Of a stretch of 41,318 nt of DNA, positions 10,448 through 11,072 are shown in pieces. Each line of letters begins with the position of its first letter. Positions within the stretch are counted from its first letter, which is position 1. Source of the DNA: a virus. Location of the stretch: IMG/VR virus record IMGVR_UViG_3300038797_000001, positions 1 to 41,318 of that record, one strand, 5' to 3'. Position numbers and translations under genes: made by a program. The notes under the pieces are model-generated. The model saw nothing but the letters and a program-made list of their open reading frames with translations, was not told where the DNA came from and searched no databases.

Positions 10448-10470
10448 CAAAAACCCTCACTGTGGCTACA
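10448..10470 (+). promoter_or_regulatory. Phage-RNAP promoter (CAAAAACCCTCACTGTGGCTACA)
   Basis: Matches the repeated 23-mer except for C at -17. Confidence 0.8.
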
Positions 10471-10523
10471 GAGAATCCTAAAGGTTCTTTGTGGCCTTTT
10501 TACGTTGACTTGTGGAGGCCAAT

Positions 10524-11072
10524 ATGAACCGCACTTTACTGCAAGGTGGGTTCGACCTCGTTGAGCACCTCATGGAACAAGGCATTGGCGCGATCATCGC
10601 CGGTGGCTGTGCCCGTGACCTGTTCTTTGGGGTTGTCCCGAAAGACATCGACATCATCTGCGCGGGCACCGACCCGGAGACTGTTTCCAGAGCGCTTGAT
10701 GCTGGTGGTTACACCTACGAGAAGTTCCCGAAGTACCACACCGGTTCCGATTCGGATCGCCTTCAAGGCGTCTGGAAACTGGAGTCGTGTGGGATCGACG
10801 TGATCCTCTACGAGACTGATGACGTCCATGAGGCCATCGGTAAGTTCGACTACAACCTCAACCAGTTCGCCATCGTGGGCATCCAGCGGGGCATCGAAGG
10901 CGCGAGCATTCGTTACCTCGGGAAGACCCATTGGACGTCCCTTGTTCGCCTCCGTGAGGATGCCCGAGGGAGCCGCGCCGAGAAGATGGAGAGCAAGTGG
11001 ATGTCGCTGCTGGGCGGCAACAACTGGAACAGCTCGTTGGTAGAGCGCGAGGTTGCCGATGTCGTCAACTGA
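10524..11072 (+). CDS. Truncated nucleotidyltransferase of the CCA-adding enzyme / poly(A) polymerase family (head domain only, 182 aa)
   Basis: [18 protein letters not shown] fits the GGxVRDxLLGxxxxDxD motif [11 protein letters not shown] fits motif B (RRDFTxNAxA). GGAGG lies 5 nt before ATG 10524. The 3' end overlaps the primase start. Confidence 0.7.

Follow-up and report, generated by a model that had tools for sequence, protein, structure and literature searches.

A short class II-type nucleotidyltransferase encoded between the amidase and primase genes of a T7-like phage genome, and its possible role in counter-defence or host takeover

What does a T7-like phage do with a nucleotidyltransferase (NTase) that is less than half as long as the enzymes it most resembles? 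The question is raised by IMG/VR virus record IMGVR_UViG_3300038797_000001, of which positions 1 to 41,318 were analyzed (hereafter the window) and which encodes, on the forward strand at 10524..11072, a 182-amino-acid (aa) protein between a lysozyme gene and a primase gene. A preliminary description of this DNA had read the protein as a head-domain-only member of the tRNA nucleotidyltransferase/poly(A) polymerase (PAP) family, driven by its own phage promoter and perhaps acting in RNA 3'-end tailing or in tRNA repair against tRNA-targeting host defenses. We find that the protein is a truncated class II (CCA/PAP-type) Pol-beta NTase core with its catalytic carboxylates intact, and it is very probably an active NTase. 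The gene is not new, as it is a member of a known and annotated accessory gene family of the Autographiviridae, PHROG 1614. Replication or tRNA maturation is most likely not its task, and we tentatively favor a role in counter-defense or host takeover.

The open reading frame (ORF) itself is real. A Shine-Dalgarno sequence, GGAGG, was read on the forward strand at 10514..10518, 5 nt before the ATG at 10524, and we place the start at this ATG and not at the GTG at 10512 because all homologues begin with the same MNR. The ratio of nonsynonymous to synonymous substitution rates (dN/dS) is approximately 0.24 to 0.26 against the orthologues of phages Emajogi and gh-1. Catalytic residues are strongly conserved among 150 diverged relatives clustered at 50% identity, the set on which all conservation counts below are based, which argues that the gene encodes an enzyme under selection and not a decayed fragment. 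An identical protein is present in public metagenome collections, where it is labeled "hypothetical protein."

The significance of the NTase assignment comes only from profiles and structure. Searched as a single sequence, the protein scores 18.4 bits against Pfam PF01743, under the cut-off of 23, and only aa 24 to 59, covering motif A, are matched; its homologues score 15.9 to 21.4 bits. The NCBIfam pcnB and CCA models stay far under their cut-offs, with the pcnB subfamily model reaching E=1.2e-6 over the motif A region, and a phmmer search of PDB with the single sequence gives an E value of about 0.06. By comparison, the PHROG 1614 hidden Markov model (HMM), annotated "nucleotidyltransferase," matches aa 6 to 177 at E=1.2e-49, and a profile of 40 relatives matches a CCA-adding enzyme among PDB sequences at E=3.8e-6. 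A 150-member profile aligned by hhalign with class II enzymes (a comparison set of six sequences, namely, E. coli CCA, PcnB, and four units of a protein designated P0143) gives a probability of 98% and E=2.7e-13 over 155 columns. For the search against PF01743 and related Pol-beta models proposed in the preliminary description, the single sequence is therefore insufficient, and the signal comes from the family profiles.

Structure prediction, which had been proposed alongside it, points the same way. The AlphaFold2 (AF2) model has a predicted local distance difference test score (pLDDT) of 91.1 and a predicted template-modeling score (pTM) of 0.88, and class II CCA-adding enzymes or PAPs fill all of ranks 1 to 46 among its Foldseek matches in PDB (E values from 1.9e-5 to 2.8e-3). 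These matches typically span about 120 columns at a root-mean-square deviation of about 3.6 Å and correspond to the head domain.

The residues expected of such a head domain are in place, including the two motifs quoted in the preliminary description at aa 27 to 44 and aa 107 to 116. Motif A, GGCARD...KDIDI (aa 27 to 44; 10602..10655, forward strand, as for the motifs, promoter, leader hairpin, and flanking amidase and primase/helicase genes given below), lines up with the corresponding motif of CCA enzymes and PcnB. G27 and G28 are conserved in 99% of the relatives, R31 in 99%, and D32 in 97%, and the DxD pair D41/D43 is found in 99%. D92 (10797..10799), in the strand IDVILY, is the putative third catalytic carboxylate; it is an aspartate in 133 of the 150 relatives (89%), and the profile-profile alignment pairs its strand with the IIEVATF strand of PcnB. 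The motif-B-like stretch FDYNLNQF (aa 108 to 115; 10845..10868) aligns with class II RRDFTIN and with the FDFT of the phage protein Gad2 and is likewise conserved (F108, 93%; D109, 97%; N111, 89%; N113, 94%; Q114, 86%). Within KFDYNLNQ, D109 and N113 align with the D and N of RRDFTIN, and both arginines of RRD are missing (K/x-F).

A further conserved segment lies beyond the head. Residues R144-E-D146-A-R148-G-S-R151-A-E-K154-M-E-S-K158 (10953..10997) form a C-terminal motif-D-like segment, modeled as a helix at aa 150 to 164, and belong to the family pattern L140-x-x-(L/V)-R144-x-D146-x4-R151-x-x-K154-M-x-x-K158. Among the aligned relatives, R151 occurs in 128 of 130, K158 in 95 of 113, and D146 in 71 of 130; S or T predominates at position 148. 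Both the class II motif-D helix (EDPxRxLRAxRF) and Gad2 LRVQKY align with this stretch, in registers that differ by one helical turn between the hhalign alignment to class II and that to Gad2. The term "head-domain-only" is thus apt for the head at aa ~1 to 135 and for the lack of body and tail, but it overlooks this additional helix. The architecture is a head plus one motif-D-like helix, lacking the flexible loop, most of the neck, the body, and the tail.

These losses bear on what the enzyme could do. The third carboxylate and motif B (D92 to D109) are separated by 17 residues versus 43 in E. coli PcnB, leaving a gap of 15 to 22 columns in the profile alignment where the flexible loop would be. 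In work from 2008, Neuenfeldt et al. reportedly found that the class II flexible loop is needed for A addition, the C-to-A switch. The motif C region is shortened, and in one subgroup it is wholly missing. The D-to-R spacing in REDARGSR is one residue short of EDxxR, and the base-reading arginine of EDxxR is not conserved in the family. Searches for PF12627 and similar neck, body, and tail domains matched none in the 182-aa protein, and the AF2 model stops after one helix plus a short strand and helix. Exact tRNA-measured CCA addition is therefore unlikely.

A minimal CCA-adding or tRNA repair enzyme, restoring 3' ends damaged by defenses that attack the acceptor end, would be the most literal reading of the fold. 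The closest solved structures are CCA-adding enzymes, the GGxxRD...DxD form of motif A is the class II signature, many records label the gene "tRNA nucleotidyltransferase," and the (E/D)DAR of the ghunavirus subgroup resembles EDxxR minus one residue. Defenses aimed at tRNA 3' tails also exist, such as Cas12a3 (PMC12851939), toxSAS (PMC11559606), and MenT (PMC11541572). However, the tRNA repair idea is weakened because the protein has neither the flexible loop nor the body and tail domains that hold the tRNA, and little of motif C and the neck, and because the phage has no tRNA genes of its own (none, and no tmRNA gene, was found in the window, nor did a scan of the window against Rfam match any family). 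The shortened or absent motif C, the unconserved EDxxR arginine, and the replacement of the motif B arginines by K/x-F add to this, the host has its own CCA enzyme, and repair would not account for the toxicity on overexpression described below for an orthologue. We consider this explanation quite unlikely.

Loss of the tRNA ruler domains fits nonspecific tailing, in which a PcnB-like activity would place untemplated A or other tails on host mRNAs and small RNAs, speeding their decay or disturbing translation, with no specific defense as its target. E. coli PcnB is the best single-sequence profile match (hhalign 93%, E=2.7e-7), middle-gene timing would place the enzyme beside other host-directed functions, and an orthologue is toxic when overexpressed. 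Yet the PcnB match is limited to motif A, the PcnB RNA-binding region (PF12627) is absent, T7-like phages already possess other means of host shutoff, and a patchy, host-genus-linked distribution (see below) is more what one would expect of an arms-race gene than of a general means of takeover. General tailing is a possible but rather doubtful explanation; if it is true, the family shows how little of a CCA/PAP enzyme suffices for activity.

The acceptor could also be a small nucleotide or a protein, for example, in the making of a decoy or inhibitor nucleotide against a nucleotide-sensing defense or in protein nucleotidylylation. No recognizable nucleic acid-binding domain is present, and there is weak likeness in Pfam and Foldseek to aminoglycoside and lincosamide NTases (Foldseek rank 50). 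Other Pol-beta NTases, such as CD-NTases, MNT, and aminoglycoside NTases, use small or protein acceptors, which also counts in favor of this idea. On the other hand, the top structural and profile matches are all enzymes acting on RNA 3' ends, a search of PADLOC-DB, CD-NTases included, gave zero matches at E<=1, and the C-terminal helix carries a conserved basic face (R151/K154/K158) to which a phosphate backbone could bind. Such an acceptor therefore appears very unlikely.

Homologues were found in 161 records of the phage collection searched, with 137 from Pseudomonas phages, 16 from Dickeya phages, and a few from phages of Klebsiella, Pectobacterium, Erwinia, Xanthomonas, and Salmonella. 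Their labels vary among nucleotidyltransferase, tRNA nucleotidyltransferase, pcnB/poly(A) polymerase I, "polymerase," and hypothetical protein. A set of 5.8 billion proteins holds 108 close relatives, and an exhaustive HMM search of cluster representatives returned 1549 proteins at E<=0.001, of which 206 had E<1e-10; nearly all of the top 150 relatives are 150 to 230 aa long (median, 187 aa). Closest to the window protein are a public cluster representative (P0001, 90% identity) and, among cultured phages, the protein of Pseudomonas phage P413 (83%), followed by Emajogi gp22 at 79% and gh-1 AAO73152.1 at 77%. These PHROG 1614 relatives share the length class, the motifs, and the Studiervirinae gene order of amidase, NTase, and primase/helicase, and they differ in sequence divergence only. 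More distant members of PHROG 1614 type occur in Dickeya phage Ninurta, LIMEzero, LKD16, PP2, and phiAS7. In BFVD, many similar short NTases are predicted in Autographiviridae, including LKD16, LIMEzero, PP2, phiAS7, Cd1, friunaviruses, and Vibrio phages, with template-modeling (TM) scores of structural matches up to 0.75 to 0.82.

The gene was first taken for an unusual insertion relative to T7, but it is instead part of this long-annotated Autographiviridae accessory family (PHROG 1614, 161 records, PMC7693777). In 2020, Evseev et al. found the NTase family in 37 of 46 Pectobacterium autographiviruses versus 60 of more than 500 others and described it without assigning a role (PMC7693777). 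The distribution is patchy and correlated with host genus. The family is present in about 100 or more cultured autographiviruses and in the 206 diverged metagenome clusters (E<1e-10), and it is enriched in phages of plant-associated hosts used for biocontrol. The gene is ordinary for its phage group, and the interest lies in the function of the whole family.

Our preferred explanation is that the NTase is an accessory counter-defense or host-takeover factor, possibly Gad2-like, to which we assign a probability of roughly 0.45. The gene is expressed from its own phage promoter and belongs with the middle genes (DNA-metabolism class). The enzyme would use two metal ions to transfer nucleoside monophosphates from nucleoside triphosphates, without a template, to a 3'-OH acceptor that is probably an RNA end. 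With no domains to measure tRNA, it would add short untemplated stretches and not an exact CCA. The role would be analogous to that of its distant relative Gad2. Counter-defense as a general idea is plausible, and its only experimentally grounded link is to Gad2, which is directed against Gabija, and not to the tRNA-cleaving systems named in the preliminary description.

Phage SPbetaL7 needs Gad2 (~400 aa, a predicted NTase) to evade Gabija, and its copy of the protein is toxic when expressed; inhibition of Gabija was shown only for the SPbetaL7 protein and that of B. laterosporus (a Brevibacillus prophage) (bioRxiv 10.1101/2023.05.01.538930). The authors' list of homologues also includes shorter proteins, of 214 to 278 aa (bioRxiv 10.1101/2023.05.01.538930). 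Using seven Gad2 homologues from Supplementary Table 10 of the same work (bioRxiv 10.1101/2023.05.01.538930), the 150-sequence family alignment matched the N-terminal 166 residues of Gad2 over 143 columns (hhalign 95.5%, E=1.3e-8), and a 40-sequence family alignment gave 82% and E=1e-5. Residues F128, L137, R152, and Y156, invariant in Gad2, correspond to the family-conserved Y/F131, L140, R151, and M/I155. The family HMM scores a 214-aa Streptococcus suis homologue from the Gad2 authors' list at 40 bits, and precomputed matches to the Gad2 model PF26128 are marked "weak" on close homologues such as P0048, absent on P0001, and unmarked (E<=1e-5) on the distant P0136. A Pseudomonas putida overexpression screen identified eight cytotoxic genes, among them Emajogi gp22, which was toxic only at 2% arabinose, where growth fell by 4.2 log2-fold, and the authors noted that some homologues are annotated as Gad2 family (bioRxiv 10.64898/2026.09.15.751885).

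Several observations weigh against the counter-defense or host-takeover explanation. With E=2.7e-13 against class II enzymes and E=1.3e-8 against Gad2, the short family is nearer to the former. Its kinship with the validated Gad2 proteins is at profile level only, and the family HMM is not significant against them (18.6 bits for B. laterosporus Gad2). The C-terminal half of validated Gad2, of about 230 aa, is absent, and nothing in the short proteins matches Gad2 beyond residue ~166. The toxicity of gp22 at 2% arabinose may be nonspecific. The literature searched holds no biochemical or genetic assay of the short phage NTases, and because it also yielded no mechanism for Gad2, to say that the protein works like Gad2 predicts little. 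Nothing in our analysis shows that the hosts carry Gabija, and Gabija specifically as the target is unlikely.

A narrower form of the counter-defense idea would make the 180-aa protein a minimal Gad2-type catalytic unit that, without any RNA-binding domain, transfers nucleotides to a nucleic acid end, a protein, or a nucleotide and thereby neutralizes Gabija or another OLD-family or nucleotide-sensing defense of Pseudomonas, Pectobacterium, and Dickeya. We regard this as rather unlikely. Were it true, about one-fifth of Autographiviridae would carry an enzymatic anti-defense gene mislabeled "tRNA nucleotidyltransferase." If the activity is indeed shared with Gad2, this small and well-folding protein would offer a tractable minimal model for the unexplained Gad2 mechanism, and the gene would matter for host range prediction in phage cocktails against Pseudomonas, Pectobacterium, and Dickeya.

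Middle-gene expression from a dedicated promoter, as in the proposed mechanism, agrees with the sequence upstream of the ORF. A promoter for a single-subunit RNA polymerase of gh-1/T7 type lies at 10446..10468, with the core 16-mer AAACCCTCACTGTGGC at 10451-10466. It is one of 11 matches to the gh-1-type core in the window, versus 1.3 expected by chance, a count that none of 100 shuffles reached. The promoter corresponds in place to the annotated gh-1 promoter phi6 and also aligns with the Emajogi intergenic region, so the dedicated promoter claimed in the preliminary description holds. The search for a counterpart of the gh-1 internal promoter phi7 yielded no second promoter match within the NTase ORF.

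Transcripts from this promoter would begin with a hairpin. A terminator-like scan identified a 14-bp stem with a 5-nt loop at 10464-10496, followed by five T residues at 10497-10501 (10464..10501 in total), so that the hairpin begins at about +1 of the NTase promoter. Folding of the 67-nt leader gives -24.8 kcal/mol (z=-3.9), and none of the other 10 promoters has so stable a leader, the first 40 nt reaching -20.8 kcal/mol here versus -2.6 to -16.1 kcal/mol for the others. From a by-eye reading of the alignment, in which pairs were uncounted, gh-1 and Emajogi appear to retain the stem with different bases. The hairpin could be a stabilizer of the mRNA 5' end, a terminator of read-through from the amidase gene, or a processing site. 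A counterpart of the gh-1 RNase III site R6 was also sought, but the 3' end of the NTase ORF showed no stable structure (z=+1.4).

The gene neighborhood raises one more possibility, namely, that the NTase assists the primase/helicase, for example, by capping RNA primers or DNA 3' ends or extending them without a template. The gene sits in a DNA-metabolism module. Upstream is the T7 gp3.5-type amidase/lysozyme gene (10005..10445; PF01510, E=4.9e-17), preceded in turn by the genes for endonuclease I and the gp2.5 single-stranded DNA-binding protein, and downstream is the primase/helicase gene (11059..12765; PF21268, Toprim, and DnaB_C). The position between lysozyme and primase and the overlap with the primase start are as first described. 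The NTase stop codon at 11070-11072 lies beyond the primase ATG at 11059, giving a 14-nt overlap, with a GAGG for the primase at 11049-11052, and the same overlap is found in related loci. But this adjacency is not conserved, gh-1 having an HNH gene in between, and most T7-like phages, T7 included, replicate without an NTase gene. Diverged members of the family are always found in podovirus DNA-metabolism modules, in which the immediate neighbors vary; in other autographiviruses, the NTase follows endonuclease VII or precedes genes of unknown function and the DNA polymerase gene. A replication accessory role is accordingly highly improbable.

In gh-1, a 3.8-type HNH endonuclease gene (3042-3407 of its locus record) lies between the NTase and primase genes and looks like a mobile homing endonuclease insertion. 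This gene is absent from the window, Emajogi, and the other relatives examined, where the NTase overlaps the primase start directly. The contrast drawn earlier with T7, which was said to have only small 3.8/4.x-type genes at this site, is thus blurred, since gh-1 carries both an NTase gene and a 3.8-type gene.

The window is a complete T7-like genome of ~41.2 kb with 56.8% GC. Its kinship is with the ghunaviruses of Pseudomonas, and by megablast the region 9500-12800 is ~78 to 80% identical to Henninger, Ep007, Kallioja, PPPL-1, and others. An exact 127-bp repeat is present at both contig ends (1-127 and 41192-41318). The simplest reading is that the assembler left overlapping ends on a circularly permuted or complete genome, so that the true end of the genome probably does not coincide with the start of the contig. 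Two conserved genes annotated without a function occupy the interval from primase/helicase to DNA polymerase, at 12777-12992 and 13060-13548; they match PHROG 9727 (E=4e-18) and PHROG 9312 (E=3e-29), respectively, and no Pfam family. An antisense ORF opposite the NTase gene (10536..11105, 189 aa) matched no PHROG and was taken as an artefact of GC-rich antisense sequence.

Homologues on bacterial chromosomes (P0048 and others) were considered as a possible defense island or toxin-antitoxin context and rejected, as they lie inside complete T7-like gene sets and so offer no independent context. In CP104579.1 (L003, an Ectopseudomonas oleovorans chromosome), positions 1409750-1430307 hold a complete T7-like set running from RNA polymerase through the NTase homologue to capsid, within a 4.68-Mb bacterial record and directly adjoining an IS66-family transposase. 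Either a temperate or defective T7-like element has integrated here, or the record contains an assembly artefact. Further NTase homologues were observed on other large Pseudomonas contigs (P0049, P0050, and P0060). The 1455-aa protein P0143 was considered as an informative long "fusion" of the short NTase and rejected, since it consists of four tandem, diverged, canonical class II units, each with a head and a PolyA_pol_RNAbd domain. Its motif B, FD(F/L)(T/S)IN, is the same F-D variant as in the short phage family, and the protein represents either an unusual multicopy architecture or a gene-calling fusion.

Among known systems, MenT/AbiEii (DUF1814) and the MNT of HEPN-MNT pairs share with the phage protein the Pol-beta superfamily fold, small size, and toxicity when expressed, and the Emajogi authors invoked NTase toxins acting on tRNA 3' ends to explain the toxicity of gp22 (bioRxiv 10.64898/2026.09.15.751885). 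However, no MenT/AbiEii or MNT-type defense or toxin-antitoxin model was matched in Pfam, NCBIfam, or PADLOC, motif A is of another type, there is no antitoxin partner here, and the phage gene belongs to a replication module and not to a toxin-antitoxin locus.

Class II CCA/PAP enzymes and Gad2 are further comparisons. Class II enzymes and the phage protein have in common the Pol-beta head, GGxxRD...DxD, the third-carboxylate strand, the motif B Asp/Asn, and the motif-D-like helix, whereas the phage protein is less than half as long, scores under the PF01743 cut-off, lacks the RR of motif B and the flexible loop, has a shortened motif C and an unconserved EDxxR, and retains one helix of the neck and neither body nor tail. 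Gad2 and the short family differ in that Gad2 has ITS where the short family keeps the class II RD and in that H125 and P146, invariant in Gad2, have no conserved counterpart. They are alike in being phage encoded and in sharing a homologous core of ~150 to 165 aa (IAGG...DxD, FD(F/Y), and S-x-x-R-x-x-K-(Y/M)), Gad2 and Emajogi gp22 can both be toxic, and some short-family homologues are annotated as Gad2 family. Aligned directly with each other, class II enzymes and Gad2 reach only an hhalign probability of 59% (E=9e-5), which places the short family between the two, nearer to class II.

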